Positions 134 to 64,000 of a stretch of DNA of 64,000 bases are shown here, piece after piece. Made by a program: the position numbers and the translations under genes. The notes under the pieces are model-generated. The model did no database searches. It had not been told where the DNA came from and worked only from the letters and a program-made list of their open reading frames with translations. Within the stretch, counting starts at the first letter, position 1, and every line of letters starts with the position of its first letter. This stretch comes from an uncultured Thermoleophilia bacterium (GTDB lineage Bacteria; Actinomycetota; Thermoleophilia; UBA2241): assembly GCA_963702475.1 (NCBI GenBank), contig CAVPCT010000009.1, positions 128,001 through 192,000 of the forward strand, written 5' to 3'.

Positions 134-757
134 ATGGAGAGCACCGTCTGGCAGGACGACCACCCCTGGACCCACATCGACTGGGAGCTCAACGACGTCA
201 CGCCGTACCAGCTCAACTGGTTCTGGTGCAACATGGAGAAGGGCGACTACCTCTGGCACCCCAACCAGCACAAGGGCTTCGAGTGGTGGATCAGCCTCGA
301 AGAGGCCGGTGGTCCCCTGGGTAGCGTGCACATCGCGCCACAGACCTGGAACGACGGCGTCAAGATCCGCCCGTACATCAAGTTCCCGCGCCTGGAGGAG
401 ATCCCGGCCGAGTATCGGGACCTCATCAAGTACGACCACGTCGTGTTCGCCGGGGCGATCAGCATCATGGGCGACGACGTGAAGCCCGACGATCCGGTGC
501 TCGGCTACCGCTGTCACCAGTGGCAGAAGAGCGACAGCGGCGTCGTCGGCATGTCTTCGGCGATCGAGGCCAAGGAGAACGCCGCCGACGACGGCCTCAT
601 CTGGGCGCAGCACGCCACCGAGGAGGTCGGCAACTGGGAGGTCTTCCTGCCGACCCTGATGCGCCTGTACCGCGTGATCACCGACCCGGAGATCTGCCCG
701 TACTACTCGTTCCGCGTGGAGGGCACGGGGCGCGAGGCGAAGTACGTCGAGCTCTGA
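134..757 (+). CDS. Short, divergent PhlG/DAPG-hydrolase (phloretin hydrolase) family protein
   Basis: VTPYQLNWFW..YLWHPNQH and C-terminal HATEE..FLPTL match the PhlG-family WxPxxH and HxxxE metal motifs; RBS AAGGA upstream. Confidence 0.65.
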   Translation: MESTVWQDDHPWTHIDWELNDVTPYQLNWFWCNMEKGDYLWHPNQHKGFEWWISLEEAGGPLGSVHIAPQTWNDGVKIRPYIKFPRLEEIPAEYRDLIKYDHVVFAGAISIMGDDVKPDDPVLGYRCHQWQKSDSGVVGMSSAIEAKENAADDGLIWAQHATEEVGNWEVFLPTLMRLYRVITDPEICPYYSFRVEGTGREAKYVEL

Positions 758-788
758 GAGGCGCGAGATCCGCGCGGGGACGACGACC

Positions 789-2495
789 GTGAACAGCCGG
801 CGTGGCGGGGCTGTCGAGCGGGGCGCCGCAGGTACACCGCTCTGCGCGGAGCAGCACGGAGCGGACGGGGCCGGGGGCGCGGCGAGCGTCCCGGCCCCGC
901 CTGCGTCTGCGTGGGCGCCGCTGCGCCACAAGGTCTACCGCGCGCTGTGGTTCGCTCTGCTGGCGACCAACGTCGGCGCCTGGATGCAGGCGGTGGGCGC
1001 CGCCTGGCTCATGGTGGAGCTGGAAGCTTCGCCGACGATCATCGCCCTCGTGCAGACGGCGACGTTCCTGCCCGTGGTGCTGGTCGGCGTGGTGGCCGGC
1101 GCGCTCGCCGACCTGCTGGACCGGCGCCGGCTGCTGCTGGCGACGCAGGCGGCCGGGCTGGTCGTGGCCGCGGCGTTGGCCGTCGTGACGGCTGCCGGCG
1201 CCGTCACGCCTTGGGTGCTGCTCGGCTTCACCTTCGCGCTCGGGGTGTGCACGGCGTTCAACGGGCCGGCGTATCAGGCCATCCAGCCTGAGCTGGTGCC
1301 GGCCCGCGAGCTGAAGCAGGCGCTCACGCTCGGCGGCGCCAACATCAACCTCGGCCGGGCCATCGGCCCGGCCGTGGGCGGGGTGCTCATCGCCGCCGTC
1401 GGCGCCTGGCTCGTGTTCGGTCTCAACGCCGTCGCCTACCTCGGCAGCGTCGTCGTGCTGTGGCGCTGGAGGCGGGCCCCGGGCGACGACGTCGGCCCGC
1501 CGGAGCACTTCGCCGGGGCCATCCGCGCCGGCGTGCGGTACGCCCTGTTCTCGCGCGTGCTGCAGGGCGTGCTGCTGCGCTCGTTCGTCTTCGGGCTCGC
1601 CAGCTCCGCCCTGCTCTCGCTGCTGCCGGTGTACGCCTCCCGGGCGCTCGGCGCAGGGTCCGGCGGCCTCGGCCTTCTGTACGCCGGCATCGGCGTCGGG
1701 GCGGTGGCGATGGCCGCGCTGTTGCCGCGGCTCCGCGCGCACCTCAGCGACGACCGCATCTTCGCGCTGGGGAGCGTCACGGTCGGCGCGGCGCTTGTCA
1801 CCTATGCGGCCGCGCCGGTCCTCGCCGCCGCCCTGGCCGCCAGCTTCGTGGCCGGCCTCGGCTGGCTCTGCTGTCTCTCCACCCTCAGCGTCGCCTCCCA
1901 GGACGCCCTGCCTTCGTGGGTGCGGGCCCGCGGCCTCGCCTTCTGCCTCACGGCTCTCTCGGCAGGGGTGGCTCTCGGCGCGGTCCTGTGGGGCATGCTT
2001 GCCTCCGTCGAGGGCGTTCGCGCTGCGTACGCATGGGGCGCCGCCGCGCTCGTCGTGACGCTCGTCCTCGCCCTGCGCTGGCGCTTCGACGCGATCGCCC
2101 GCCTCGACCTCTCGCCGTCGCCGCTCGCGTCGCCGGAGACGCGGCTCCTCGGGGAGGAGCACGCCGACAGCCCGGCCTTCGTGCTCGTGAGCTACGAGGT
2201 CCGGCCCGAGTGCGAGGACGACTTCCTCCGCGCGCTGCGGCTTGTCGGCCGCGTACGGCGCCGCAACGGCGCCGCCGACTGGTCCTTCTACCGCGACGCC
2301 GAGAGGCTGGACCGGTTCATCGAGACCTTCGTGCTGCCGACCTGGGACGAGCACGTGCGGCAGCACCAGCGCCTCACCGTCACGGACGCCGCCGTCCTCG
2401 ACAGGGTCCTCGAATTCCTCAAGCCCGGGACGTCCTTCACGGCCGAGCACTACGTCCAGCCGCCGCAACCGCCGCTCGAGCTCTGGCCGCGGTAG
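789..2495 (+). CDS. MFS transporter (MFS_3/DUF894 type) with soluble C-terminal domain
   Basis: About 12 hydrophobic segments, GALADLLDRRR motif A, C-terminal ...RRRNGA..W...ETF..TWDEHVRQHQR domain; start uncertain. Confidence 0.9.
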   Translation: MNSRRGGAVERGAAGTPLCAEQHGADGAGGAASVPAPPASAWAPLRHKVYRALWFALLATNVGAWMQAVGAAWLMVELEASPTIIALVQTATFLPVVLVGVVAGALADLLDRRRLLLATQAAGLVVAAALAVVTAAGAVTPWVLLGFTFALGVCTAFNGPAYQAIQPELVPARELKQALTLGGANINLGRAIGPAVGGVLIAAVGAWLVFGLNAVAYLGSVVVLWRWRRAPGDDVGPPEHFAGAIRAGVRYALFSRVLQGVLLRSFVFGLASSALLSLLPVYASRALGAGSGGLGLLYAGIGVGAVAMAALLPRLRAHLSDDRIFALGSVTVGAALVTYAAAPVLAAALAASFVAGLGWLCCLSTLSVASQDALPSWVRARGLAFCLTALSAGVALGAVLWGMLASVEGVRAAYAWGAAALVVTLVLALRWRFDAIARLDLSPSPLASPETRLLGEEHADSPAFVLVSYEVRPECEDDFLRALRLVGRVRRRNGAADWSFYRDAERLDRFIETFVLPTWDEHVRQHQRLTVTDAAVLDRVLEFLKPGTSFTAEHYVQPPQPPLELWPR

Positions 2496-2564
2496 GGCGG
2501 GAGGGTCTTCGCGGCAGGCTTGCTGCTCCGCTCAGCGGTCCGTGCGTCGCCGGACCGGCCTAGA

Positions 2565-2580
2565 GAGAGCGTTCGCTCTA
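2565..2580. promoter_or_regulatory. Palindromic operator GAGAGCG-TT-CGCTCTA (TetR-like)
   Basis: Arms differ by one base from the perfect palindrome at 36320-36335; just upstream of the -35 at 2589. Confidence 0.6.
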
Positions 2581-2588
2581 TTTGCCCC

Positions 2589-2616
2589 TTGCATCCTGGC
2601 AGAGAGGCACTATAGT
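2589..2616 (+). promoter_or_regulatory. Putative sigma70-type promoter TTGCAT-N16-TATAGT
   Basis: AT-rich hexamers in a GC-rich intergenic region upstream of the MerR-TetR operon. Confidence 0.55.
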
Positions 2617-2652: not shown

Positions 2653-2692
2653 TGGAGCAAAGGGGAACCAGCGTCCGCCTGAGGGGGTGGGG

Positions 2693-3646
2693 ATGCGGGC
2701 ACTCACGATCGGTGAGCTCGAGACGGAATCCGGCACCGCGCGCAGCACGATCTACTTCTACGTGCGCGCGGGGCTCCTGCCGCCCGCCCAGAAAGCCAGC
2801 CCGACGCGCGCCATCTACACCGACGCCCACGTCGAGCTCCTCGAGGAGATCCGGCGGCTGAAGGCGCAGGGCCTGGACATCCGGGCCATCGGCGAGCGGC
2901 TGCGGCAGCGCGTGCACTCCGCCAGCCAGAACGGGGAAGATCTCGTGGCGCGGCAGGAAGAAGAGACCCGCCGCGCCATCCTCTCCGTCGCCGGGCGCGA
3001 GTTCTCCCGCAACGGCTACCGCCAGACGCGCATCGCCGACATCATCCGCGACCTGGGCATCACCCCGCAGACGCTCTACGGCTACTTCCCGACCAAGCGC
3101 GACCTGTTCGCCGCCGCGTACCGGGACTACCTCGAGGCGTCCATGACTGCTATCGAGCCGCGGCTCGCGGATGAGGACGATCCGGCCGTCCACGTGCTGT
3201 GGCGCATGGTGGGCGACTACAGTCTGCAGGCGCTGAACCCCGACCTTCTCTATCTCTCGCGTGAGGCCGCCTACGACGACCCCGAGACCACCCGCGAGCT
3301 GCGGGCCGCCCACGACCACGTCCTCACCGGGCCGACCGAGGATCTCCTGCGCCGCCGCGGCGGTCCGGACGAGCCGCCCCTGTCGGACGAGCTCGTCAGC
3401 TATGCCCTGTACGGCGCGTTCCAGACGATGCGTCTGCGCGCCTCGTGGGACAGCCGCTTCTCCCGCAGCGACGTGATGTGGACGAACGTGGCCATCAACC
3501 TGGCCGTCCTGGCGCTGTACGACGGCACCATCGACGTCGCCGCTCTCAGGGAGAAGTACGCCGACCTCGTCGCGGAGCTCGCGGCCATGGAGCCGCCCGA
3601 ACCCGCGGATCTCGAGACCTCACTGCCGACGCGAGAGGGCACTTGA
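2693..3646 (+). CDS. MerR-HTH / TetR fusion transcriptional regulator
   Basis: N-terminal LTIGELE..STIYFYVRAGLLP (MerR HTH) followed by RRAILSVAGREFSRNGY..TRIADI...TLYGYFPTK (TetR HTH). Confidence 0.9.
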   Translation: MRALTIGELETESGTARSTIYFYVRAGLLPPAQKASPTRAIYTDAHVELLEEIRRLKAQGLDIRAIGERLRQRVHSASQNGEDLVARQEEETRRAILSVAGREFSRNGYRQTRIADIIRDLGITPQTLYGYFPTKRDLFAAAYRDYLEASMTAIEPRLADEDDPAVHVLWRMVGDYSLQALNPDLLYLSREAAYDDPETTRELRAAHDHVLTGPTEDLLRRRGGPDEPPLSDELVSYALYGAFQTMRLRASWDSRFSRSDVMWTNVAINLAVLALYDGTIDVAALREKYADLVAELAAMEPPEPADLETSLPTREGT

Positions 3647-4440
3647 TGGAGGTGCGGCCGGCCCACGACCAGCGCCTCCGCGGGCGCGTCGCCGTCGTGA
3701 CCGGCGCGGCGCGCCCGCGCGGCATCGGCCGCGCCGTCGCCCTGCGCTACGCGGCCGAGGGTGCGCGCGTGGCCGTGCTGGACCTGGACGGCGAGGGCGC
3801 GCGCGGTGTGGCCGACGAGATCACGGCGGCCGGCGGCGCGGCCGTCGGCGTCGCCTGCGACGTCGCCGATCTCGCGTCGGTGGAGGCGGCCGCGGTGCGC
3901 GTTCTCGACGCGTGGGGCGGCCGCGTCGACATCCTCGTGAACAACGCGGCCGCGCTCGACGGTGTCGTCTGGCAGCCGTTCGACCAGTGGACCGTCGAGG
4001 AGTGGGACACGATGCTCGACGTGAACCTGCGCGGCATGTGGTTCTGCGCCCGCGCCTTCGTCCCCGCCATGAAGGCGCGCGGCTACGGCAAGATCGTCAA
4101 CGTCACATCCTCCACCTTCTGGGAGGGCGTGGGCGGCTTCATCCACTACACCTCGAGCAAGGGCGGCGTGATCGGCTTCACGCGTGCCCTCGGCCGCGAG
4201 CTCGGGCCGTTCGGCGTCCGCGTGAACGCGCTCGCTCCGGGCTACACGATGACCGACGCGCAGACCGAGCACGCGACGGCGCACCCCGACCATCAGGTCG
4301 CGATGCGCGAGCAGCGTGCCCTGGCCCGCGATCAGGTGGCGGACGACCTCGCCGGCCCGGCTTTCTTCCTGGCCTCGGACGACAGCGATTTCATGACCTG
4401 CCAGACCATCCTCGTGGATGGCGGCCGGAGCATGTGGTGA
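3646..4440 (+). CDS. Short-chain dehydrogenase/reductase
   Basis: TGAARPRGIG, NNAA, YTSSK (YxxxK); ATG overlaps the upstream TGA. Confidence 0.95.
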   Translation: MEVRPAHDQRLRGRVAVVTGAARPRGIGRAVALRYAAEGARVAVLDLDGEGARGVADEITAAGGAAVGVACDVADLASVEAAAVRVLDAWGGRVDILVNNAAALDGVVWQPFDQWTVEEWDTMLDVNLRGMWFCARAFVPAMKARGYGKIVNVTSSTFWEGVGGFIHYTSSKGGVIGFTRALGRELGPFGVRVNALAPGYTMTDAQTEHATAHPDHQVAMREQRALARDQVADDLAGPAFFLASDDSDFMTCQTILVDGGRSMW

Positions 4441-4488
4441 TGGCGATGACCGCGACACGGCGCAGAGGCCGCCGAGGGGGTACGTCCA

Positions 4489-5367
4489 TTGACTGATTGG
4501 CTGCAACTGCTGGTCTCCGGCATCACGCTGGGGTCGATCTTCTCGCTCGTCGCTCTCGGGTTCGTGACGATCTACCGCACCTCGAAGGTGGTGAACATGG
4601 CCCAGGGCTCGTTCGTGATGCTCGGCACCATGTTCACGTACTCCTTCCTCAATGAGCTCGGCTGGCCGTTCTGGCTGTCGGCCATCGTTTCCATCGCGGG
4701 CGTGATCGTGGTCGGCATCCTGATGTTCCAGATCGTGCTCAAGCCGATGCTCAAGGCGCCGCCGGCGGCGATGATCCTGCTGACGATCGCCCTGAGCCTG
4801 CTCATCGAGAACCTCGCCCTCCTCAAGTGGGGCGGCTACGGCCTCGGCATCCCGGCGTTCACCGGGGAGACGTCCATCTGGGTGCGCGGCGTCGCCATAC
4901 CGCCCCAGACGCTGTGGGTGCTCGGGGTCACCATCGCAGTCCTCATCGCGCTCTACTGGCTCAACAACCGCACCCTCGTCGGCAAGATGATGACGGCGAC
5001 GGCCACGCGGCCCAACGCCGCCAGCCTGTGCGGCATCTCCACGACACTGATGATCATCATCGCCTTCGCCATCAGCGCCGGCATCGGCGCCATCGGCGGC
5101 GTGAGCGTCGGCTCGGTCATCCCGATCGCCTTCACCACCGGCGGCCTCATCGGCCTCAACGGCTTCGTCGCCGCCATCCTCGGCGGCTGGGGCTCAAGCA
5201 CCGGCGCCGTCGTCGGCGGCTTCACCCTCGGCATCCTCGAGTCGCTGTTCACCGGCGTCGTCCCGGCGGGCTACAAGGACGCGCTTGCGTTCGTCCTGCT
5301 CATCATCGTGGTGTACTTCCGGCCCTCCGGCCTCCTCGGTACCCCGTCCGTGGAAGGCGAGGAGTGA
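4489..5367 (+). CDS. livH: HAAT-family ABC transporter permease (LivH-like)
   Basis: LVSGITLGSIFSLVALGF..VVNMAQG, AAILGGWGS, RPSGLLG motifs; TTG start. Confidence 0.9.
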   Translation: MTDWLQLLVSGITLGSIFSLVALGFVTIYRTSKVVNMAQGSFVMLGTMFTYSFLNELGWPFWLSAIVSIAGVIVVGILMFQIVLKPMLKAPPAAMILLTIALSLLIENLALLKWGGYGLGIPAFTGETSIWVRGVAIPPQTLWVLGVTIAVLIALYWLNNRTLVGKMMTATATRPNAASLCGISTTLMIIIAFAISAGIGAIGGVSVGSVIPIAFTTGGLIGLNGFVAAILGGWGSSTGAVVGGFTLGILESLFTGVVPAGYKDALAFVLLIIVVYFRPSGLLGTPSVEGEE

Positions 5368-8090
5368 TGGCGGCGAGCAAGGTCGACAAGAAGGCCGCCC
5401 CGCCGAAGGGCCTCGTGCCCACTCTGAGGAGCGGCAGCTTCCTCTTCAAGCTCATCTTCATCGCGATCCTGCTCATCTGGCCGATGGTGCTTCCCAACAC
5501 CTACAACATGAGCGTGATGACCACTGCCGGGTACTACGCGATGATCGTCGTCGCCGTGAGCCTCATCCTCGGCCAGGCCGGCCAGCTCTCGCTGGCGCAC
5601 AACGCGTTCTACGGGATAGGCGCCTACGTCGCCGCCATCCTCGCCACGACGTACCACTGGAACAGCCTGCTGGCGCTGTTCGTCGGGGCGCTCGCCGCCG
5701 GCGGCGTGGCCATCCTGATCGGCAAGCCGGTGCTCAAGCTCAAGTATTTCTACCTGGCCCTCGCCACCCTGGGTCTGGGCCAGATCTTCGGCATCATCGT
5801 CACGCAGCTCACCATCACCGGCGGCGCCAACGGCTTCGGGCCGATCCCGACGCTCGACATCTTCGGCTTCGACGTCGGCACCTACATGCGCCAGTACTAC
5901 GTCATCTGGATCATCGTGATCCTGACGCTGTTGTTCACCGACCGCGCCCTCAAGTACCGGTTCGGGCGCTCGCTGCGCTCGCTGGCGACGAGCGAGATCG
6001 CGGCCTCGACCCTCGGCGTGCGCACCGCCAACTGGAAGCTCGTCGCCTTCGTGGTCGGGGCCGTGTACTGCGGCTTCGCCGGCGGCCTGTTCGCCTTCTT
6101 CAGCGTGGCCATCATGCCGGGCTCCTTCGGCTTCGCCGCGGCGGTCCTGCCGGTGGTCATGATGCTCGTCGGCGGCGACCAGAACATCTGGGGCGGCGCC
6201 ATCGGCGCCATCGTGCTCACCTGGGTCGTCAACGGCTTCCCGCAGCTCCAGCAGTACAGCGGCGTCACCTACTCGGTCGTCATGATCCTGCTCCTCATGT
6301 TCCTCCCGATGGGCATCGTCGGCCTGTTCTCGCCGATGGCCCGCGCCCGGATGCGCAAGCGCTTCGGCATGAAGGACAAGGGCGATCTCGGGGAGGTGGA
6401 GGCCCTGCCCGATGTGGGTGCCGACACCGGCGGCGAGCTGGAGTTCAAGGCCTCGGTGGCCGAGGCTGCGGCCGCGGCCCAGGAGACGAAGGAGGCCCTC
6501 GCCGCCGCCGCGGACGTGAGGACGGCGGCCGCCGCCCAGGACGACGCGCCGGCGCTGCTGCGCGTGGAGGGCGTCACCGTCCAGTTCGGCGGTCTCAAGG
6601 CCGTGAACGACGTGACCATGGAGGTCCGCGAGGGCGAGATCACGGCGCTCATCGGCCCGAACGGCGCCGGCAAGACCACGCTGTTCAACGCCGTCAGCCG
6701 GCTGCAGTCCATCACCACCGGCTCCATCAGCTTCATGGGGCGGGACATCACGAAGCTCAGCCCGCCGGAGGTCGCACGACTGGGCATGGCGCGCACCTTC
6801 CAGAACCTGCGCATCTTCGCCAACATGAACGTGCTCGAGAACGTGCTCGTGGGCTGCCACCGGCACGAGCACTCCGGCATGTTCTCGGAGGGCATCGGCC
6901 TGCCCAAGCAGCGGGCCGAGGAGAAGGCCTCGCGCGAACGCGCCATGAAGACGCTCGAACTGCTCGGCCTCGAGCACTACGCCATGCGGCCGGCCGCGAG
7001 CCTGCCCTACGGCATCCAGCGGCTGGTCGAGATCGCCCGCGCGGTCGCGTCCGAGCCCAAGCTGCTCATGCTCGACGAGCCCGCGGCCGGCATGAACGCG
7101 CACGAGCGGGCTTATCTGGTCGACAGGATCGGGCGCATCCGAGACGCCGGCATCAGCGTGCTGCTCGTCGAGCACGACATCGGCCTCGTGATGGGCATCT
7201 CCGACGCGGTCAACTGCCTTGACTACGGCAAGCTCATCGCCTGTGGCACGCCGGGCGTCGTCCAGCAGGATCCTGCGGTCATCGCCGCCTACCTCGGCGA
7301 CGGCAAGGCGCGCGTCGCCAGTCACCGCGACGCGGAGCACGTGACGGCCTGCGATGACTGCATGCTGGTCGTGGAGGACCTCGTCACGTCCTACGGCACC
7401 ATCGAAGCGCTCCACGGCGTGTCGTTCGAGGTGCCCAAGGGGCAGATCGTGGCCGTGCTCGGGGCCAACGGCGCCGGCAAGACCACGCTGCTGGAGACGA
7501 TCTCCGGCCTGCTCAAGCCCAACCGCGGCCGGATCCTCTACGAGGGCGCCGACATCACCAAGGTCGCGCCACACAAGATCGCGAGGCGGGGCCTCGGCCA
7601 CGTGCCCGAGGGGCGCCAGCTCTTCCCGACGCTGAGCGTCGAGGACAACCTCATCCTCGGGGCCACGGCCCGGGCAGACAAGGCAGGGCTCCAGGACGAC
7701 ATCGCCTTCGTGTATGAGGTGTTCCCCGTGCTCGGGGAGCGGCGCAAGCAGCACGCCGGCACGCTGTCGGGCGGCGAGCAGCAGATGCTCGCCATCGGCA
7801 GGGCCATCACCGGCAAGCCCAGCCTGCTGCTGCTCGACGAGCCGTCCATGGGCCTCGCTCCCATGACGGTGGACCGCATCTTCGAGGGCCTGCAGAAGCT
7901 CAACGAACAAGGCCTCACCATGCTCATGGTGGAGCAGAACGCGGAGATGGCACTCTCCATCGCGGACTATGCGGTGGTGCTTCAGACCGGCAATGTCGTC
8001 ATCGCGGAGAGCGCCACCGCTCTCCGCGAGGACGACCGGGTGCGGGCGTCCTATCTGGGCCAGAGCCAGACCGGGGCTCGCGCAAACTGA
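5367..8090 (+). CDS. Fused ABC permease plus two ATPase domains (LivM-LivG-LivF)
   Basis: LivM motifs GQLSLAHNAFYGIGAY and YLALATLG, then two Walker A motifs (GPNGAGKT, GANGAGKT) and LSGGEQQM in one uninterrupted frame. Confidence 0.92.
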   Translation: MAASKVDKKAAPPKGLVPTLRSGSFLFKLIFIAILLIWPMVLPNTYNMSVMTTAGYYAMIVVAVSLILGQAGQLSLAHNAFYGIGAYVAAILATTYHWNSLLALFVGALAAGGVAILIGKPVLKLKYFYLALATLGLGQIFGIIVTQLTITGGANGFGPIPTLDIFGFDVGTYMRQYYVIWIIVILTLLFTDRALKYRFGRSLRSLATSEIAASTLGVRTANWKLVAFVVGAVYCGFAGGLFAFFSVAIMPGSFGFAAAVLPVVMMLVGGDQNIWGGAIGAIVLTWVVNGFPQLQQYSGVTYSVVMILLLMFLPMGIVGLFSPMARARMRKRFGMKDKGDLGEVEALPDVGADTGGELEFKASVAEAAAAAQETKEALAAAADVRTAAAAQDDAPALLRVEGVTVQFGGLKAVNDVTMEVREGEITALIGPNGAGKTTLFNAVSRLQSITTGSISFMGRDITKLSPPEVARLGMARTFQNLRIFANMNVLENVLVGCHRHEHSGMFSEGIGLPKQRAEEKASRERAMKTLELLGLEHYAMRPAASLPYGIQRLVEIARAVASEPKLLMLDEPAAGMNAHERAYLVDRIGRIRDAGISVLLVEHDIGLVMGISDAVNCLDYGKLIACGTPGVVQQDPAVIAAYLGDGKARVASHRDAEHVTACDDCMLVVEDLVTSYGTIEALHGVSFEVPKGQIVAVLGANGAGKTTLLETISGLLKPNRGRILYEGADITKVAPHKIARRGLGHVPEGRQLFPTLSVEDNLILGATARADKAGLQDDIAFVYEVFPVLGERRKQHAGTLSGGEQQMLAIGRAITGKPSLLLLDEPSMGLAPMTVDRIFEGLQKLNEQGLTMLMVEQNAEMALSIADYAVVLQTGNVVIAESATALREDDRVRASYLGQSQTGARAN

Positions 8091-8124
8091 CGTGGGGACA
8101 CAAAGGCAAGGGGAGGAGAAGAGC

Positions 8125-55151: not shown

Positions 55152-55168
55152 GCGCCCTCCGTCTGCGA

Positions 55169-55198: not shown

Positions 55199-55274
55199 GC
55201 ATAGCAACTATTCCAAGTCCTATAGCTCGCCGTCGCAGCCCGGCGGCGGAGATGCCAGGAGGTAGCGGGGAGAC

Positions 55275-55529
55275 ATGAACCAGGTCCTCATCGACTTCGA
55301 CGCGTGCACCGGCTGCAAGACCTGTTACCGGGCCTGTTTCGCCGACGTGATCCGCTGGGACGCGGAGGCGAAGCTGCCCCTCGTCGCGTACCCGGAAGAC
55401 TGCGTGCACTGCAACCTCTGCGAGATCAGCTGCAAGGACGAGGCCATCACCATCGTGGCCGACTGGGACGTGCCGTACCCGCCGGTCATCGAGCGCGGGT
55501 TCCCGTACAGAGTGGGAGGCCTGCGATGA
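55275..55529 (+). CDS. 2x[4Fe-4S] ferredoxin (AprB-like)
   Basis: CTGCKTCYRAC and AYPEDCVHCNLCEISC. Confidence 0.92.
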   Translation: MNQVLIDFDACTGCKTCYRACFADVIRWDAEAKLPLVAYPEDCVHCNLCEISCKDEAITIVADWDVPYPPVIERGFPYRVGGLR

Positions 55530-57257: not shown

Positions 57258-58112
57258 ATGGCGACCAGCAGGGAGTGCGCCGCGCGCGAACCCGCGCCGC
57301 TCACGGCGGAAGAGCAGGCCAGGCCGTACGCCAAGTACTACACGATGGACCTGGGCGGGGCCGACCCGGCAGCCCTGGAGCTCATGGCCCGCGACCGGCA
57401 GGTCCCGCAGGGCAAGATGCTCATGCCGGAGGACCTGGACAGGCTGCTCGACCCGGGCAACTTCGAGGTCGAGACCGGCTGGGGCATGATGGACAACGGC
57501 GCCGGTTACATCGCCATGCGCCACGAGATGCCGGGCGTCACCGTCGAGATGATCGACTGGTGGTTCGCCTGGCACCCCCTCGAGCCGCTGCGCTACCGCA
57601 TCTGGTACCCGCAGTACCACCTGGGCATCGGTCTCGACGAGTGGGTGCGTCCCCGCCTCAAGGACCCCGACGTCCCCGTGCGCGACAAGGTCGAGCAGGT
57701 CGTCCACCACGTGACCGAGGACACGGGCTGCGGCACCGAGCACATCGACATCCACTTCCTCACGCCGGAGCAGATGGGCTTCGACATGAACCGCTGGCAC
57801 GCGCCCAACGTGGGCACCTTCGTCGGCGGCTTCGGCTTCAGCCTCAACGAGCACCAGCCGGCGGATCTCCCCGCGGCGCCGGCCATCATGGTCCACTTCG
57901 TGCGCGAGATGGACGGCGGCGTGGAGTGGCGCACGCGCTTCTGGATGGGCTACACCATCATGGGCGGCCACCCGGTGTGCATGCTGCCGCCGGGCGTGCG
58001 CATCCCCGAAGAGGTGCCGCACGGCCTCGCCAACCACAACGTGCACGAGTACGGGCGCCTCAAGGCGCTGCTGCCGCTGATCTACGCCGAGCTCGGCGGC
58101 ACCTACGCATGA
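57258..58112 (+). CDS. PhlG / phloretin hydrolase family C-C hydrolase
   Basis: MPGVTVEMIDWWFAWHPLEPLRYRIWYPQYH, HHVTED, RTRFWMGY, HNVHE..LLPLIY. Confidence 0.9.
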   Translation: MATSRECAAREPAPLTAEEQARPYAKYYTMDLGGADPAALELMARDRQVPQGKMLMPEDLDRLLDPGNFEVETGWGMMDNGAGYIAMRHEMPGVTVEMIDWWFAWHPLEPLRYRIWYPQYHLGIGLDEWVRPRLKDPDVPVRDKVEQVVHHVTEDTGCGTEHIDIHFLTPEQMGFDMNRWHAPNVGTFVGGFGFSLNEHQPADLPAAPAIMVHFVREMDGGVEWRTRFWMGYTIMGGHPVCMLPPGVRIPEEVPHGLANHNVHEYGRLKALLPLIYAELGGTYA

Positions 58113-59869
58113 GCGCTGACCCGGTCTACTACGACGCTCTGGTCAAGGACTACGACCTGCCGGTGACGATGCGCGACGGCGTCACCCTGCGCGTGGACGT
58201 GTACCGCCCCGACGCGCCCGGTCAGTTCCCCGTCCTCTACACGTGCGCCATGCACAACAAGGACCTGCAGCGGGTGGAGGTGGCCGAGAGCCTCAGGGTC
58301 GGGCAGCCCGCCTGGTCCACGCAGTGGTACGGGGTGATCGAGGGGGGAGACTCGAAGCGCTTCGTGGCCCACGGCTACGTGCACGTGATCGCGCAGGTGC
58401 GCGGCGGCCACAAGTCGGAGGGTGAGCTCCTCGTCGGCGACGAGTGGGACCACTACGACACCATCGAGTGGATCTGCTCCCAGCCGTGGTGCGACGGCAA
58501 CGTCGGCATGGTCGGCCTCTCGGCCTTCGCCGCCGAGCAGTGGAGGGCCGCCGCCCAGGGACACCCGGCGCTCAAGGCCATCTTCCCCCTGGACGCCGGC
58601 GGCTGCTACGGAGGGCTCGAGGGCTTCCGCGACCAGCACCCGGGCGGCGTGATCCAGACGATGCCGTACCATATCGGCCTCTACAACAGCCTGCACGGGA
58701 GCATCGGCACGCCGCCTGAGCTGCCGCCGCCCCTGGAAGAGGCGTGGGCGGCGGCCATGCGGGACCCCGACTACCTGATGTACGTGAACCTGTACAACAT
58801 CCTCACGCTGAAGGGGCAGCGTGACCCGGGGATGTTCTATCCGCTGCTGTTCCCGTTCGAGCGCCCCGGCACCGTCGCGCGCACCGAGGAGCTCTTCGCC
58901 AAGATCAGGATCCCCTTCGTCACCGGGGCCTTCGAGGGCGCCTACACCTACAAGATGCACTGGCAGGGGGCGCAGCACTTCTTCGCCGGCGTCGACGTGC
59001 CGCACAAGCACCTCTTCGTCACCCCGCCGGCGCACGCAGAGCGCCCGTTCCACGAGTGGCACGACGAGATCATCCGCTGGTACGACCACTGGCTGAAGGG
59101 CGTCGACAACGGAGTCGAGGACGACCCTGCAGTGCGGGCCTGGATCATGGGCGAGAACAGGTGGCGCGAGTTCGACGCGTGGCCCGTGCCCGAGACGCGG
59201 TGGACAGAGTACTACCTGCACTCCTGGGAGAAGCTCGACACCAGGGGTCACCTGCCGGCCACGCGCACCTTCGTCGACGAACCGCCGGACGCCTTCGTGC
59301 AGATGCCGCCGACGCAGACCAACACCATCCAGCGGCTCCGCTACCTGACGGAGCCGCTGGCCGACGACACCCTCGTCGTCGGTCCCATCTCGCTCACCTT
59401 CTGGGCGTCACTCGACGAGGACGACACGAACTGGATCGTCATCCTCAAGGACGTCGGCCCGGACGTCTCGGTGCAGACCGTGCGACCCGGCGAGCGCGAG
59501 CGCCCCGCCGTGCCGGAGCGGGAGCTCACGCGCGGCTGGCTGAGGGCCTCACGCCGCGCGCTCGACCCCGAACGCTCGACGCCCTGGAAGCCCTGGCACC
59601 ACCTCAGCCCGGAGACCATCAGCCCGGTCGTGCCCGGCGCCGTCGAGGAGTACCAGGTGGAGATCCTCTCCACCGCCAACCTCTTCAAGACGGGCCACCG
59701 CATCTGCCTCGAGATCACCAGCCTGGACCTGGCCGAAGGAGTGGCCGGCGAGACCTTCGCGGAGTACATCCCCAACCACGTGTGCTCGAGCAGGACGGTG
59801 CTGCACAAGGTGTTCCACAACGCCGAGTACCCGTCGCACCTGCTGCTGCCCGTCGTCCCCCTCGAGTAG
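58109..59869 (+). CDS. CocE/NonD family serine hydrolase
   Basis: MRDGVTLRVDVYRP, RGGHKSEG, QPWCDGNVGMVGLSAF, RWYDHWLKG, FKTGHRI. Confidence 0.9.
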   Translation: MSADPVYYDALVKDYDLPVTMRDGVTLRVDVYRPDAPGQFPVLYTCAMHNKDLQRVEVAESLRVGQPAWSTQWYGVIEGGDSKRFVAHGYVHVIAQVRGGHKSEGELLVGDEWDHYDTIEWICSQPWCDGNVGMVGLSAFAAEQWRAAAQGHPALKAIFPLDAGGCYGGLEGFRDQHPGGVIQTMPYHIGLYNSLHGSIGTPPELPPPLEEAWAAAMRDPDYLMYVNLYNILTLKGQRDPGMFYPLLFPFERPGTVARTEELFAKIRIPFVTGAFEGAYTYKMHWQGAQHFFAGVDVPHKHLFVTPPAHAERPFHEWHDEIIRWYDHWLKGVDNGVEDDPAVRAWIMGENRWREFDAWPVPETRWTEYYLHSWEKLDTRGHLPATRTFVDEPPDAFVQMPPTQTNTIQRLRYLTEPLADDTLVVGPISLTFWASLDEDDTNWIVILKDVGPDVSVQTVRPGERERPAVPERELTRGWLRASRRALDPERSTPWKPWHHLSPETISPVVPGAVEEYQVEILSTANLFKTGHRICLEITSLDLAEGVAGETFAEYIPNHVCSSRTVLHKVFHNAEYPSHLLLPVVPLE

Positions 59870-59884: not shown

Positions 59885-60667
59885 ATGCTCAAGAGCATCG
59901 TCATGATGGACCTGCCCATCGACGACATCGCCGAGATGGAGCGCTGGTATTACGAGGCGCACTCCTCGGAGATCTCGCGGCGGTACGGGCCCTGGCTGCA
60001 GCGCCACGAGAGCTACGTGGCGCTGGACGCGCCCGAGGACGCGCGCCAGTTCGGCTTCTACAACTGGCGCGTCACCGAGTGCTGCTGGCGCGAGATGCCG
60101 CAGGCGGGGCCGGCCGGCGCCTACTGCTTCACGCCGGCCCCCGTCTGGAACCCTATCGCCACCTGCGCCGTCAAGCCGCAGCCCGACGACGACTTCTTCG
60201 GCTGGGACGGCTTCTCCACGCAGGGCGCCAGCATCCGCTGGTTCATCCTCCTGCGGTATCCGTTGGGCGTGCGCCTCAAGGACGGCGAGGACTGGTTCCG
60301 CAACGTGCACGCCCCGGAGGTGTGCCGGCAGCCGGGGCTCACACGCTTCTTCAGCCACAAGTGCGAGCAGGCGGCGGTCCCGCTGCCCGGCGTGTGGCAC
60401 CCGGACGCCTCGCCGCCCCAGGACTACCTCATGGTCCAGTGGGACCGCGTCGTGGAGCTCTGGTACCCGAGCTTCAGCGCCTGGCGCAAGGCGGTCATCG
60501 AGGAGCCGCCGGTCTACACGCCGCCGGAGTGGGCGACCGACGACTTCTACAAGGACGGCTACGCCCGGTACCCGTTCTTCAAGCCCGGCGTGGACTTCGT
60601 CAGCACGTTCCTGCTCGAGCGCCCCGCCGACGAGTTCCTGCGCGACACGCGCTACTACCGGCCGTGA
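59885..60667 (+). CDS. Bacterial chalcone isomerase-like protein
   Basis: RWYYEAH, FGFYNWRVTECCW, YPLGVRLKDGEDW, VVELWY, PEWA..YPFFKP, colinear with the Eubacterium ramulus CHI sequence as recalled. Confidence 0.75.
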   Translation: MLKSIVMMDLPIDDIAEMERWYYEAHSSEISRRYGPWLQRHESYVALDAPEDARQFGFYNWRVTECCWREMPQAGPAGAYCFTPAPVWNPIATCAVKPQPDDDFFGWDGFSTQGASIRWFILLRYPLGVRLKDGEDWFRNVHAPEVCRQPGLTRFFSHKCEQAAVPLPGVWHPDASPPQDYLMVQWDRVVELWYPSFSAWRKAVIEEPPVYTPPEWATDDFYKDGYARYPFFKPGVDFVSTFLLERPADEFLRDTRYYRP

Positions 60668-60683: not shown

Positions 60684-61523
60684 ATGCCCGTGAGACAGCT
60701 CACGCCCGAAGAAGAGGCCAAGCCGTACGCGAAGTACTACCACCGTCCGGTGACGCCGCCGGACGCGGACCTGGTCGCGCTCATCCGGCCGGACGTGCAG
60801 ATCGACCCGGCCCTGGCGCTGCCGCCGGAGCGCATCAGCGACCTGCTCGACCCCGGCTACCACGAGGTCGAGACCGGCTGGTGCATCATGCCCGACGGCA
60901 GCGGCTACCTGGCCGTGCACAACCGCATGCCCGGCGTCACCGTGGAGATGCTCGACTGGTGGTTCTGGTGGCACTCCATGGCCAGCGTGCGCTACGGCCT
61001 GTGGTATCCGCCGGGGCACTACGGCATCTCCATAAGCCGGAGGTCGCGCGCCCGGCTCAGCGACCCGGACGTACCGGCCAAGGACAAGATCTACGGCCGC
61101 ACCGACCACGTGGTCGAGGACATCGGCACCGGCGCGGAGGACATCTACATCTGCTTCTGCGCGCCCGAGGAGATGGGCTTCGACATGAGCCGCTTCCATG
61201 CCCCGCACGTGGCGGCCGTGTACGGCGGCTACGGCTTCGACCAGCCGCAGGGCGCCAGGCCGAGCGACATCCGCGCGCCCGCCATCATGTGCCACTTCAT
61301 ACGCGAGCTCCCCGACGCCGAGGGCGTCGAGTTCCGCTCGCGCTTCTGGATGGGTTACAAGCTCATCGACGGCGAGCCCGTGCTGGCCATCCCGCCGGGC
61401 GAGTCGGTGCCGGCCGCGGTGCCCTACGGCCTCGCCGATCACAACGTCAAGGAGTACTGCAACCTCAAGTCGCTGCTGCCCGAGGTCTGGGCGGAGTTCA
61501 AGGACGAGGACCCGGCTCTGTGA
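60684..61523 (+). CDS. PhlG / phloretin hydrolase family C-C hydrolase
   Basis: MPGVTVEMLDWWFWWH..RYGLWYPPGH, HVVEDIG, RSRFWMGY, HNVKE. Confidence 0.9.
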   Translation: MPVRQLTPEEEAKPYAKYYHRPVTPPDADLVALIRPDVQIDPALALPPERISDLLDPGYHEVETGWCIMPDGSGYLAVHNRMPGVTVEMLDWWFWWHSMASVRYGLWYPPGHYGISISRRSRARLSDPDVPAKDKIYGRTDHVVEDIGTGAEDIYICFCAPEEMGFDMSRFHAPHVAAVYGGYGFDQPQGARPSDIRAPAIMCHFIRELPDAEGVEFRSRFWMGYKLIDGEPVLAIPPGESVPAAVPYGLADHNVKEYCNLKSLLPEVWAEFKDEDPAL

Positions 61524-61542: not shown

Positions 61543-62337
61543 ATGCCAATGAAGCTGATGGCGGCGTCACGCCGCCGGCCTGGACTCACCAGGGCGGAGT
61601 ACTTCCGCTACATCGAGCACTACCACGGCACGGTGGCGCGCCTGGAGCGCTTCAAGATCGAGAAGTACATCCAGAACCACGTGATCGACGGCGCCTTCGG
61701 CGTGATCTCCGACGCCGGCGGCCACAAGAACAAGGTCGCCGACAGGGACGCCGTCGTCGAGCTCCACTTCGACAGCTTCCGCGACATGCTGGCCACCCTC
61801 GAGCCCGAGGGGGTGACCCAGTCGCGGGCCAACCAGGACGGCCGCTTCTTCGCCGACGAGCCGACCAACATCATCGTCATGGCCGAGGAGACCGAGCTTC
61901 CCGTGGCCAAGCCCCTGCCGGACTTCAATCCGGGACTGGGTGAGCCGGGGCACGGAGCTCTCAAGGTGATGCAGTTCGTCATGCGCCGCCCCGACGTCTT
62001 CCCCCAGGACTTCCACCGGCTCTGGTGCCGGGCTCACGACGAGGCCCTGGCGGCGAGCCCGTACGCGAACGACATGTTCCGCAGGATCGTCGTGAGCAAG
62101 CGCTCCCGGGTGAACGACAACGACGCGGCCGCCCGGGCGCACTTCAAGATGGTCGACCCGCCGGTGTACGACCTCGTGGTCTCGTTCATCCTCGACAGCG
62201 TGGAGCAGGCCGGCGCCTTCAGGCAGTACTTCGACGCCGTCACGAGCAGCCCGCTGGAGTTCGCCGACTGGTCGGAGTCGTTCTTCCTCTACGTGAGGCA
62301 GGTGCGGATCATCGACGACGCGCCGCCGAAGGAGTAG
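61543..62337 (+). CDS. Tandem EthD-like protein
   Basis: RRRPGLTRAEYFRYIEHYHG..KYIQNHV..RDAVVELHFDS and a second KVMQFVMRRPDV..FHRLW repeat. Confidence 0.8.
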   Translation: MPMKLMAASRRRPGLTRAEYFRYIEHYHGTVARLERFKIEKYIQNHVIDGAFGVISDAGGHKNKVADRDAVVELHFDSFRDMLATLEPEGVTQSRANQDGRFFADEPTNIIVMAEETELPVAKPLPDFNPGLGEPGHGALKVMQFVMRRPDVFPQDFHRLWCRAHDEALAASPYANDMFRRIVVSKRSRVNDNDAAARAHFKMVDPPVYDLVVSFILDSVEQAGAFRQYFDAVTSSPLEFADWSESFFLYVRQVRIIDDAPPKE

Positions 62338-62341
62338 TGCC

Positions 62342-63250
62342 ATGGCAGACATGACCAAGCCCGAGTGGGCCGCGCAGAAGACCTACGACCAGAATCTGGG
62401 CGACGCCAGGATCAAGGCCACGCGCCCGCCGCTCACGCCGGAGGAAGAGAAACGGCCGTTCGCCAAGTACTACTACGACGAGATCCCCGAGCCGGACCCG
62501 GCGCACTACGCGGACATGGACGTGCCGATGGACCCCTCCGACGCGTTCTACCCGGAGGAGATCGACCGCCTGCTCGACGTCCCGGCCCTCGAGGCGGGCG
62601 TGGAGGTCGGCTGGTGCAACCTGCCCAACGGCGCCGGCTACATCGCCAACCGGATCCACTATCCGGACTTCACCGCCGACATGGTCGACTGGTGGTTCGC
62701 CTGGCACCCGCTCGAGGACCTGAGGTACCGCATCTGGTACCCGCCGCAGCACGCCGGCATCATGCTGAGCCCCATCGACAGGGCCCGCATCCTCGACGAC
62801 TCCATCCCCAACCGGGAGAAGAACTGGGGCGTGGTCCACAACGTGACGGAGAACTGCAACTGCGGCTTCGAGAACGTCGACATCGCCTTCCGCTCGCCGG
62901 CCGACATGGGCTTCGACATGGAGAAGTTCGGCAGGGTGGCGGCCACGATGGCGGCGGGCCAGGGCTGGGCCGTGGCCGTCGAGAAGTGCGACGCGTCCAT
63001 CACCGCGCCGGCGATCATGTGCCACGTGCTGTACGACGCTCCGGAGGGCGGGCTGATCCACCGCACGCGTTTCTGGATGGGCTACCGCTTCAACGAGGCG
63101 GGCAAGCCGGAGCTGTGCCTGCCGCCGGGCGTGAGCGTGCCCGTGGAGGCCGTGCAGGGTCTGGCGCGCCACAACGTCAAGGAGTTCACGCGCTGGCGCG
63201 AGTTCCTGCCGCGGATCTACGCGGAGCTGGGGCCGGGGATGTACTGCTGA
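62342..63250 (+). CDS. PhlG / phloretin hydrolase family C-C hydrolase
   Basis: DMVDWWFAWHPLEDLRYRIWYPPQH, HNVTEN, RTRFWMGY, HNVKEF..FLPRIY. Confidence 0.9.
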   Translation: MADMTKPEWAAQKTYDQNLGDARIKATRPPLTPEEEKRPFAKYYYDEIPEPDPAHYADMDVPMDPSDAFYPEEIDRLLDVPALEAGVEVGWCNLPNGAGYIANRIHYPDFTADMVDWWFAWHPLEDLRYRIWYPPQHAGIMLSPIDRARILDDSIPNREKNWGVVHNVTENCNCGFENVDIAFRSPADMGFDMEKFGRVAATMAAGQGWAVAVEKCDASITAPAIMCHVLYDAPEGGLIHRTRFWMGYRFNEAGKPELCLPPGVSVPVEAVQGLARHNVKEFTRWREFLPRIYAELGPGMYC

Positions 63251-63284
63251 CGGCGGGATCCGCCTGACGAGTCCGACCGACTTC

Positions 63285-63320
63285 CGGGCGCCGGGAGGAC
63301 CATCGTCCCCCCGGCGCCCG
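63285..63320 (+). terminator. Hairpin ending the hydrolase operon
   Basis: CGGGCGCCGGGAGGAC-catc-GTCCCCCCGGCGCCCG. Confidence 0.65.
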
Positions 63321-63380
63321 CTCTGCGTTGAGCGCCAGCCGGTGGGGCGGGGCGTCCTCCTCGATGCAGCGGGAGAGGCC

Positions 63381-63411
63381 TTGACTCTCACCCGCGTCAG
63401 AGTTGCAGGGT
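63381..63411 (+). promoter_or_regulatory. MerR-type promoter: TTGACT-N19-CAGGGT with dyad ACTCTCAC-N4-GTCAGAGT
   Basis: 19-bp spacer and an inverted repeat overlapping the -35, the MerR-family hallmark. Confidence 0.65.
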
Positions 63412-63497
63412 CCGCGTCATTCGGCTGATCAGGGCTGAAGAGTCGACGCTTCACGCAGACGTCCGCGCCCACGAGTCGGCGACCTCAGGGGGAGTCC

Positions 63498-64000
63498 ATG
63501 ACCGCGTCGTACCCGCAGCTGTTCTCGCCGACGAGCATCGGCAAGGTCCGGCTGAAGAACCGCATCGTCAAGACGGCCGCGCAGACGTACTTCTTCGAGT
63601 CGGGCGAGCGGCGCTTCGGCGGCATCGCCAAGGCCTTCTACGGAGCTGTGGCGCGTGGTGGTCCCGGCCTCGTCATCTGCGAGACGCCGGCCATGGAGGC
63701 GCCCTACAAGGAGACGGACGACCGCCGCTACCGCGTCGACGACGACCGCTTCCTGCCCGACATCGAGGCGCTCGCGGCCGAGGTCCACAAGTACGACTGC
63801 CCGCTCTTCCTGCAGTTCTACCACCGCGGCCCGTGGGGCGGCGTGTACGCGGTCGGCAGGCGGCGCATCTCCGCGTCGGGCGTGACCGTGGCGTCGCCCT
63901 TCGACGTCTACGGGGAGGAGCCGCCGCACGCCATGACCCTCGCCGACATCGAAGAGGTCATCGAGGCGTTCGTGGACGGCGCCGCGCGCGCGGCGCGCGG
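63498..64000 (+). CDS. Second NADH:flavin oxidoreductase / OYE (runs off window end)
   Basis: YPQLFSPTSIGKVRLKNRIVKTA..ARGGPGLVICE..DDDRFLP..LQFYHRGPW. Confidence 0.9.
   Translation, partial: MTASYPQLFSPTSIGKVRLKNRIVKTAAQTYFFESGERRFGGIAKAFYGAVARGGPGLVICETPAMEAPYKETDDRRYRVDDDRFLPDIEALAAEVHKYDCPLFLQFYHRGPWGGVYAVGRRRISASGVTVASPFDVYGEEPPHAMTLADIEEVIEAFVDGAARAAR

Follow-up and report, generated by a model that had tools for sequence, protein, structure and literature searches.

How polyphenols are broken down independently of oxygen matters for the 'enzyme latch' view of how wet soils store carbon, and the enzymes known for it so far come from a few Firmicutes, Pelobacter and Holophaga. In Eubacterium ramulus and Flavonifractor plautii the system is made up of chalcone isomerase (CHI), the reductase Fcr/ERED and the hydrolase Phy. 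For phloroglucinol, Zhou 2023 (PMC10470551) describes in Clostridium scatologenes a pathway of PGR, a short-chain dehydrogenase/reductase (SDR), the cyclase DPGC, TfD of the 3HCDH family and TAL of the BKACE family, and it also notes mycobacterial Phy and phloroglucinol clusters. Pelobacter acidigallici has the transhydroxylase AthL/BthL (PDB 4v4c). Expression of CHI, FCR, PHY and PGR by Holophaga and Sporomusales metagenome-assembled genomes (MAGs) in polyphenol-fed anoxic soil is reported in McGivern 2021. Our literature search found no paper linking Thermoleophilia to polyphenol or phloroglucinol metabolism. Here we describe a stretch of 64,000 nucleotides (the window), positions 128001-192000 of contig CAVPCT010000009.1 (C9) of an uncultured Thermoleophilia MAG (genome G000). 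Judging from its gene content, the window is probably the middle of an island of more than 100 kb on C9 that encodes oxygen-independent enzymes for phloroglucinol-type polyphenols. It is a patchwork and not one complete flavonoid pathway: the upper steps (hydrolases and their helpers) and hydroxyl transfer appear to be encoded in the window, and the established ring-fission cluster is unlinked to it. The island points to Thermoleophilia, abundant and uncultured soil actinobacteria, with the largest AthL complement of the genus.

With the E. ramulus and F. plautii system the window shares the CHI fold and its catalytic His, PhlG/Phy hydrolases and Fe-S FadH-type reductases of the old yellow enzyme (OYE) family. 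It differs in that the lid helices of CHI are absent and an extra loop is found in the second domain, in having three to four hydrolase paralogs instead of one, in having a tandem-EthD protein and an SdhA-like flavoprotein, and not an OYE, as conserved partners, and in its host, a high-GC soil or wastewater actinobacterium with oxidases. This likeness is drawn from the CHI structures in the PDB and from the families. The four families of the C. scatologenes cluster, as given in Zhou 2023, also stand together in this genome, on contig C3, and the BKACE of the window is a paralog of the one encoded there; the window itself, however, lacks the cyclase and a stand-alone 3HCDH, its BKACE is paired with a crotonase-type beta-diketone hydrolase, and its SDRs do not carry the motif reported for PGR. 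As in P. acidigallici, one AthL (AthL_a) is full length with five active-site residues kept and its beta subunit has both domains, but three AthL are found in the window, of which AthL_b and AthL_c miss residues. The phloretin hydrolase of Mycobacterium abscessus (5xey) is the closest solved relative of one window hydrolase, and its host is likewise an actinobacterium able to use oxygen, whereas here CHI-fold and EthD genes alternate with three tandem PhlG paralogs, and there is no linkage to the phloroglucinol cluster. Finally, among solved structures the 36484-37398 product is best matched by the Rhodococcus 6-oxocamphor hydrolase and the Anabaena beta-diketone hydrolase; here its gene is surrounded by BKACE, AthL and SDR genes.

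Genes were called from codon-position G+C and annotated with Pfam and NCBIfam, and the PDB was searched in addition. The 80 best loci encoding CHI-like relatives were taken, with their record titles, as comparison set, and neighbourhoods were determined by tblastn of the window proteins on them. These loci differ in length, so that absences in the neighbourhood counts are lower bounds; because of the kinship among the loci, the counts are descriptive and not a test. Almost every gene named in a first-pass annotation of the window was found in its place by the Pfam, NCBIfam and PDB searches, and the region is indeed enriched in homologues of polyphenol-catabolic enzymes. The conserved core, the genes beside it and a distant relative of its hydrolases are the following:

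52630-55409, minus strand: SDR4, SDR5 and a fused MerR-TetR regulator, divergent from the core (Pfam)
55304-57253, plus strand: SdhA/FrdA-like FAD flavoprotein, first core gene (PF00890 and PF02910; remote PDB hits only, 2e-28)
57258-58112, plus strand: PhlG_a (PF18089, 2.5e-68)
58163-59869, plus strand: CocE/NonD-family alpha/beta hydrolase, within the core (TIGR00976)
59885-60667, plus strand: lid-less (type I) protein with the bacterial CHI fold (PF18232, E 4e-7; profile, AF2 and Foldseek)
60684-61523, plus strand: PhlG_b (PF18089, 4.3e-71; phloretin hydrolase 5xey 6.9e-37 versus PhlG 3hwp 3.6e-26)
61567-62337, plus strand: EthD_b, tandem EthD-domain core protein (PF07110)
62342-63250, plus strand: PhlG_c (PF18089, 3.9e-63)
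63498-64000, plus strand: OYE_b, FadH/enoate-reductase-type, 690 aa, extending past the window end to C9:193570
134-757, plus strand: 'unk134', 207 aa, putative distant member of the PhlG/DAPG-hydrolase superfamily (no Pfam hit; hhalign and fold match)

The core has the order flavoprotein, PhlG_a, CHI-fold protein, PhlG_b, EthD_b, PhlG_c, with the MerR-TetR regulator divergent from it. The same order, regulator included, was kept in three members of the genus (G013, G015 and G020). In G027, from another family of the class, the regulator, EthD_b, PhlG_c, CHI and PhlG_b were kept in a different order, the flavoprotein was not at the core, and a PhlG_a-like gene lay about 15 kb further on. The CocE/NonD gene was not found within the core of G013, G015 and G020; it is inserted into the core only in this genome. 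Among the 80 loci, the families found were PhlG (30), SDR (28), MerR-TetR (25), EthD_b (22), short PhlG (15), EthD_a (15), flavoprotein (15), BKACE (10), AthL (8), OYE (4) and CocE (3). Where the CHI-like protein was at least 60% identical (24 loci), PhlG was found in all 24, EthD_b in 20 and the flavoprotein in 11, and the core-side MerR-TetR regulator was conserved in 22. Only this core of about 8 kb is syntenic in relatives, and the description of the window as one locus is not supported.

The three genes of the core with PF18089 are exactly the PF18089 genes of the 4.3 Mb genome, and all lie within 6 kb. None of 14 control genomes gave a match to this family; it was found in 10 of 24 genomes of the same genus and, elsewhere in the class, in 2 of 16 genomes belonging to other families. 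With the DAPG_hydrolase domain the three genes scored 213-240 bits (Pfam cut-off 22.7), and the PDB search placed the paralogs closer to phloretin hydrolase than to PhlG. All three paralogs share His112, Glu145, His253 and Glu257 (PhlG_b numbering), which pair with His/Glu of 5xey in the alignment; these residues correspond to the metal-ligand His, Glu, His and Glu of PhlG. Four PhlG/Phy hydrolases had been counted in the first-pass annotation. Three of them are canonical; the fourth is probably the 134-757 product, which is short, distant and without Pfam hit. Homologues of this protein at 44-53% identity include several with PF18089 and one named DAPG-hydrolase-domain protein, and its family profile matched the three PhlG paralogs (hhalign probability 94%, E 1.2e-7) and found no sequence relative in the PDB. 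Its AF2 model (pLDDT 85.8) had 5xey as top fold match (E 5e-6, TM 0.54-0.58), the other matches being generic Bet v 1-like folds.

When the CHI-fold protein was searched as a single sequence against the PDB, only E. ramulus CHI matched (4.9e-9). A profile of 22 sequences, built from 100 database relatives, likewise matched only the four E. ramulus CHI sequences in the PDB (E 1e-30, residues 2-251 against 9-279). The AF2 model (pLDDT 82.6) gave with Foldseek a TM of 0.76 and E 6e-18 to CHI, the next fold being at 1e-4. Both approaches show two ferredoxin-like domains and full-length homology to the E. ramulus enzyme (CHIera). In the alignment the catalytic His33 corresponds to His26, which all 22 profile sequences share and 86 of 89 rows contain; the catalytic role of His33 is given by Meinert 2021 (PMC8361940) and by the title of PDB entry 8b7u. 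In the substrate pocket, Thr71 is kept as Thr64 and Tyr48 is replaced by His. The EthD-like proteins were considered as hidden CHI homologues and ruled out (hhalign probability 0.4-0.5%; BLASTP E 0.077); an Atlas search with EthD_b returned generic EthD clusters only.

Hydroxyl transfer would be the task of the molybdenum enzymes:

22734-26086, plus strand: AthL_a and BthL_1 (4v4c_A 2.9e-264, full length; BthL_1 with Fer4_11 and CarboxypepD_reg)
26083-29618, plus strand: AthL_b (divergent) and BthL_2, the latter at about 28794-29618 (PF21423, PF00384 and PF01568; BthL_2 by tblastn)
49434-52403, plus strand: AthL_c with a 140-residue N-terminal extension (PF21423)

All three AthL genes carry PF21423, in agreement with the three transhydroxylase-family enzymes first listed. 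AthL_a (22734-25238) is a full-length relative of the P. acidigallici transhydroxylase (882 bits, residues 7-834 against 8-869), and BthL_1 (25205-26086) has PF13247 (Fe-S) and PF13620 (carboxypeptidase-regulatory-like). AthL_b and AthL_c are 37% and 51% identical to AthL_a, respectively. Of the five active-site positions His144, Arg153, Asp174, Ser175 and Tyr404 (4v4c numbering), AthL_a keeps all five, AthL_c four (Arg153 is replaced by Phe) and AthL_b three (His, Asp and Ser, without Arg153 and Tyr404); two further AthL paralogs also keep three. In the P. acidigallici enzyme Ser175 is the Mo ligand and 144, 153, 174 and 404 are further active-site residues; the positions agree with the 4v4c sequence. 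AthL_a with BthL_1 is the best candidate for a true pyrogallol-phloroglucinol transhydroxylase. The re-hydroxylation of the B-ring that the first-pass annotation ascribed to the Mo enzymes is conjectural. BthL_2 is 57% identical to the upstream BthL (tblastn); ORF 28820-29635 was rejected as a gene, BthL_2 being encoded there in another frame. In the whole genome the AthL domain was matched 16 times, a few of the matches being fragments of a single gene. This is the highest number among 54 genomes of the genus, the next having 11, and at least one match was found in 36 of the 54, this genome included. More AthL/BthL, a second ADP-forming ligase and an indolepyruvate/pyruvate:ferredoxin oxidoreductase (IOR) lie just upstream of the window. 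The literature search for pyrogallol transhydroxylase paralogs found no paper. The N-terminal extension of AthL_c (49434-49880) had no Pfam hit; at a paralogous locus on contig C2 a separate ORF of 113 aa (C2:356257-356598) precedes the AthL gene.

The genes for ring fission, CoA-dependent steps and electron transfer are distributed over the rest of the window:

3445-4440, plus strand: SDR1, with the domain starting at about residue 77 of the ORF (PF13561, 1.4e-59)
9640-11816, plus strand: SDR2, a DUF3237 protein and the tandem EthD-like EthD_a (Pfam; EthD_a type in 15 of the 80 CHI-like loci)
16167-17300 and 17331-18224, minus strand: CCG Fe-S oxidoreductase and its membrane part (PF02754; four hydrophobic 19-mers in the 17331 ORF)
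18241-19225 and 19239-20150, minus strand: electron transfer flavoprotein (ETF) alpha, with one frame break, and ETF beta (PF00766, PF01012)
20182-22684, plus strand: LysR regulator and acyl-CoA dehydrogenase (ACAD) (Pfam, NCBIfam)
34127-36224, minus strand: MFS transporter and SDR3, divergent from the OCH operon (Pfam)
36484-37398, plus strand: 6-oxocamphor-hydrolase-type beta-diketone hydrolase (OCH) of the crotonase superfamily (PDB hits 1o8u and 2j5g)
37439-41705, plus strand: TetR regulator, FadN (38176-40498) and thiolase (40525-41705) (Pfam, NCBIfam)
41737-43836, plus strand: OYE_a, FadH/enoate-reductase-type (PF00724 and PF07992; CxxCxxC...C motif)
43882-46084, plus strand: SnoaL_4 protein and HpaB/AbfD-family flavoprotein (1u8v 1.5e-68; 2yyg 2.3e-54)
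46206-48330, plus strand: ADP-forming acyl-CoA ligase with two frame breaks (Pfam, NCBIfam)
48367-49188, plus strand: BKACE, close paralog of the C3-cluster BKACE (PF05853, 2.1e-86; own GTG start)

The five SDRs, the BKACE and the beta-diketone hydrolase of the first-pass annotation were all recovered, yet 'near-complete' is not an apt description of the window. The cyclase family PF04199, to which DPGC would belong, has three members in the genome (C3:580454, C9:91337 and C9:92146) and none in the window, and a stand-alone 3HCDH was not found in the window either. On C3, beside AthL, there is a cluster of SDR, 3HCDH, cyclase, small cupin and BKACE genes interleaved with IclR regulators. Since the four families stand together there and no cyclase is found in the window, the canonical phloroglucinol cluster is located elsewhere. 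NCBIfam has no PGR, DPGC or TAL models to decide between paralogs. The window BKACE is 73% identical to that of the C3 cluster; a fusion of BKACE to the ligase was considered and rejected, as the GTG start at 48367 follows a stop. The cupin (116 aa), encoded at 7527-7877 of the locus C3:574001-592000 between cyclase and BKACE, is outside the published four-enzyme pathway.

The OCH product had 6-oxocamphor hydrolase 1o8u (1.7e-32) and the Anabaena enzyme ABDH 2j5g (6.7e-29) as best PDB matches, against 6.9e-15 for the best enoyl-CoA hydratase. Proteins of this type are rare, being found in 2 of 53 other genomes of the genus (E<=1e-20) and in 6 of 400 other genomes of the phylum (E<=1e-25). A row on C2 has an SDR, an AthL_c-like protein (59%), a BKACE (70%) and two OCH-type hydrolases; the arrangement BKACE, OCH, OCH, ligase is seen again in the genus member G009. 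A possible role of the OCH-type hydrolases is to stand in for a cyclase-type enzyme by opening the ring of cyclic beta-diketones, dihydrophloroglucinol for example. A further row, 36 kb upstream of the window (5171-10126 of C9:84001-100000), consists of SDR, thiolase, cyclase, cyclase and family III CoA-transferase and adjoins an aldehyde:ferredoxin oxidoreductase (AOR); it may be another ring-cleavage locus.

The two OYE reductases are both long and FadH-type, as expected from the first-pass annotation. Each has an OYE domain, an FAD/NAD domain and a 4Fe-4S Cys motif (Cys378/381/384/395 in OYE_a and Cys373/376/379/389 in OYE_b), which we take to be the Fcr/ERED architecture; OYE_b is 37% identical to OYE_a. 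ACAD, FadN, thiolase and ADP-forming ligase are all present, FadN, thiolase and ligase with frame breaks. The EtfAB-FadF set is represented by both ETF subunits and by the CCG Fe-S protein with its membrane part, ETF alpha again with a frame break. The HpaB/AbfD-family protein has 4-hydroxybutyryl-CoA dehydratase (AbfD, 1u8v) as its nearest PDB match, but no Cys occurs between residues 6 and 223, and the Cys ligands that hold the 4Fe-4S cluster of AbfD, near residues 99-103, are absent; a role as flavin-dependent hydroxylase is possible and would make it dependent on oxygen.

By homology, the window thus carries the core, two AthL/BthL pairs with a third AthL, an ACAD together with EtfAB and its Fe-S partner in the membrane, and a CoA-dependent operon for beta-diketone hydrolase, FadN, thiolase, Fe-S OYE, HpaB/AbfD-like protein, ligase and BKACE. 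In the scheme that we propose, the three PhlG-type hydrolases would cut the aryl-ketone C-C bond of acylphloroglucinols (dihydrochalcones and others) to give phloroglucinol and an acid, after the CHI-fold protein, the EthD protein, the flavoprotein and OYE_b have prepared the substrates by isomerisation and ene-reduction. AthL_a/BthL_1 would convert pyrogallol-type into phloroglucinol-type rings. Ring fission would proceed mainly through the SDR, 3HCDH, cyclase and BKACE of the C3 cluster, and SDR3, the beta-diketone hydrolase and BKACE of the window may provide another way of opening the ring. The acids formed alongside would be activated by the ligase and enter beta-oxidation, with electrons passing via ETF to the membrane.

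The host genome measures 4.31 Mb in 9 contigs, with 70% G+C, an estimated completeness of 93.8% and a contamination of 6.5%. Twelve loci of the comparison set had a best segment with 84-90% identity; 11 are titled Thermoleophilia bacterium MAGs, mostly 'uncultured', and one Deltaproteobacteria. At 77% identity follow 'Actinobacteria bacterium RBG_16_64_13' and another Thermoleophilia MAG (L030 and L031), and at 70-73% MAGs of Gaiellales, Actinomycetota and Actinomycetes. Because the nearest CHI-like loci carry Thermoleophilia and Actinomycetota titles, the host can be called an actinobacterium, as had been suggested. The locus titled 'Deltaproteobacteria bacterium' (L026) is 88% identical across the core and all its near neighbours are titled Thermoleophilia; its title is probably a binning or labelling error in the record. 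The term 'anaerobic', which the first-pass annotation had also used, is not supported for the host. The genome encodes haem-copper oxidase subunit I (COX1), which scored 541 bits and lies on C3, a contig of 1.1 Mb, and cytochrome bd with a score of 500 bits, and also has two LigB-type matches; no match to intradiol dioxygenase was found in the genome. As the organism can also respire oxygen, 'oxygen-independent' is the apt word: the organism is probably facultative and the encoded chemistry oxygen-independent. A 2026 SAR116 preprint argues likewise with regard to transhydroxylase and PGR in aerobes.

Several observations weigh against the interpretation of the window as part of a polyphenol island. 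Enzyme functions are assigned by homology. In the CHI-fold protein the lid helices alpha3-alpha5, with Gln101, Asn122 and Arg125, are missing (about 35 residues), and the position of Tyr48 is His. Meinert 2021 (PMC8361940) describes a branch B of the CHI family without lid and with an extra loop, for which absence of CHI activity is stated with data not shown; the window protein appears to match this inactive branch, membership being judged from the description. The PhlG paralogs reached 89-97 bits with the NCBIfam equivalog for PhlG (2,4-diacetylphloroglucinol hydrolase), below its cut-off of 600. OYE_a had as best PDB match 2-naphthoyl-CoA reductase (6qkg, 3e-71), an aryl-CoA reductase and not a flavonoid enzyme, and OYE_b was not found beside the core in G013, G015 and G020. 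The window SDRs are only 30-37% identical to the SDR of the C3 cluster, and TR(S/N), the NADPH motif of characterised PGRs according to Zhou 2023 (PMC10470551), occurs in 0 of 7 aligned SDRs, the five of the window and the C3 candidate included; SDR4 has Ala-Arg-Arg in its place. Over most of its length the window shows no synteny with relatives, and three toxin-antitoxin (TA) modules are present; for these two reasons co-location may partly reflect accretion and not one regulon. At least nine frame breaks hit FadN (about 38390, 39415 and 40020), thiolase (about 40575 and 40950), ligase (about 47570 and 48150), ETF alpha (about 18690) and an ABC binding protein (about 9175); the long-read relatives G013 and G020 gave split tblastn hits in other genes, a hint, though no proof, that the breaks in the window may be assembly errors. 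The contamination estimate of the genome must also be counted here.

The label 'CHI' is supported by the fold and the catalytic His and weakened by the missing lid and the extra loop. In the window protein the lid segment has 53 residues, compared with 72-86 in the relatives that we call type II, and about 14 extra residues form the loop in the second domain of the family. Of 88 CHI-like ORFs in the 80 loci, 70 were of the lid-less type I, 16 of type II, in which the lid segment is long, the loop short and the Tyr48 position occupied by Tyr, and 2 unclear; over 89 rows, the Tyr48 position was His in 50 and Tyr in 30. The genome has a single type I gene and no CHIera-like type II CHI. With 70 of 88 ORFs lid-less, annotation pipelines in which any PF18232 protein becomes a 'chalcone isomerase' may over-call flavonoid degradation. 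Because its CHI-fold protein is of the lid-less type, the flavonoid specificity of the island appears weakened, and it is unproven. Seven loci (L046, L060, L061, L062, L075, L080 and L081), from Proteobacteria, Chloroflexota, Acidobacteriota and Actinomycetota MAGs, contain two CHI-like genes each, type I beside type II in six of them and both type II in L080.

These data lend some weight to a different role of the core, namely that it acts on non-flavonoid acylphloroglucinols (microbial of the DAPG type, or from plants) or on polyketides, the CHI-fold and EthD proteins catalysing other isomerisations or tautomerisations. Three to four PhlG-superfamily hydrolases are accompanied here only by a lid-less CHI-fold protein, branch B is the one described as inactive on chalcones in Meinert 2021, and of 70 type I genes 31 have a PhlG-superfamily gene within 5 kb but only 2 an OYE (for type II genes, 10 of 16, 8 being the short form, and 2 of 16). 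We nevertheless consider such a role rather unlikely. Phloretin hydrolase, and not DAPG hydrolase, is the closer relative of the PhlG paralogs, which remain far below the PhlG equivalog cut-off, and type I homologues of about 40% identity are found in Holophaga foetida (L089) and in a Holophagaceae MAG (L087). According to McGivern 2021, Holophaga MAGs expressed CHI-annotated proteins, which may or may not be of this type.

That the window alone holds a near-complete anaerobic flavonoid pathway, running through CHI, OYE and Phy and then through SDR, hydrolase and BKACE for the A-ring, is very doubtful. In its favour, no named enzyme family is missing, OYE_b comes right after the core, both OYEs have the enoate-reductase-type Fe-S motif, the catalytic His of CHI is kept, and the ferredoxin-linked IOR and AOR are encoded near the window. 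However, the genome carries COX1 and cytochrome bd, the cyclase family is absent from the window with the canonical cluster on C3, the CHI type matches the branch said to be inactive in Meinert 2021, the genome lacks a type II CHI, and OYE_b is not found beside the core in three genus relatives. Equally improbable is a mere accretion of unrelated redox, beta-oxidation and Mo genes without shared pathway, in which the AthL paralogs would do other chemistry (for example resorcinol-hydroxylase-like): it would suit the mosaic with three TA modules, the 134-757 homologue lying about 8 kb from the core in G020 and 55 kb in the window, the active-site residues lacking in AthL_b and AthL_c and the generic assignment of many SDR and CoA enzymes, but AthL, BKACE, SDR and beta-diketone hydrolase or cyclase come together at three further loci of the genome, all three PF18089 genes lie within 6 kb, and more AthL/BthL flank the window.

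The preferred interpretation thus remains an island for the oxygen-independent use of phloroglucinol-type polyphenols. A more specific proposal, which we put forward only tentatively, is that soil and sediment Actinomycetota might break down acylphloroglucinols and flavonoids by an uncharacterised oxygen-independent route of their own, with a lid-less CHI-fold protein, a tandem-EthD protein, an SdhA-like flavoprotein and three specialised PhlG-type hydrolases; in the present genome a crotonase-type beta-diketone hydrolase with BKACE, SDR and AthL_c-type enzymes would replace the cyclase in a second ring-fission route for differently hydroxylated benzenes. Three enzyme sets lend themselves to assay: the module of CHI-fold protein, three PhlG, EthD and flavoprotein; the two divergent AthL types; and the beta-diketone hydrolase with BKACE. 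Among public sequencing runs no RNA run was found, and the best DNA runs share 0.30-0.34 of sampled words.

Transport, regulatory and TA genes complete the window:

789-2495, plus strand: MFS_3 transporter (PF05977, 1.4e-144)
2687-3646, plus strand: fused MerR-TetR regulator (PF13411 and PF00440)
4489-9418, plus strand: Liv-type ABC importer, with permease, fused permease and two ATPases, and split binding protein (PF02653, two PF00005, PF13458)
11540-13834, plus strand: MFS transporter and isochorismatase-family hydrolase (Pfam)
13853-15263, minus strand: HigA/HigB-like toxin-antitoxin pair (TIGR02607; PF05015 weak)
31544-32355 and 32808-33996, plus strand: ParD/ParE-like and MNT/HEPN modules (PF09720, PF05016, PF01909, PF05168)

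The importers mentioned in the first-pass annotation correspond to three MFS transporters and one Liv-type ABC importer. The three type II TA modules stand between catabolic sub-clusters, which fits a variable, accreted island; outside the core of about 8 kb the window is, judging from gene order, a lineage-specific mosaic. At 4827-8090 a LivM-like permease and two ABC ATPase domains are encoded in one frame of more than 900 residues, and this fusion recurs in a second Liv-type importer (8406-11231) in the region downstream of the window, C9:192001-212000 (L005). Three regulators fuse an N-terminal MerR helix-turn-helix to TetR_N, two in the window (2687-3646, and 54195-55409 on the minus strand) and one in L005 (12584-13513). 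Downstream of OYE_b, L005 also has a trio of FAD_binding_4, CCG and FAD_binding_4 genes (2696-7315) and, at 13656-15567, a corrinoid protein with a URO-D-type methyltransferase, which are O-demethylase-like.

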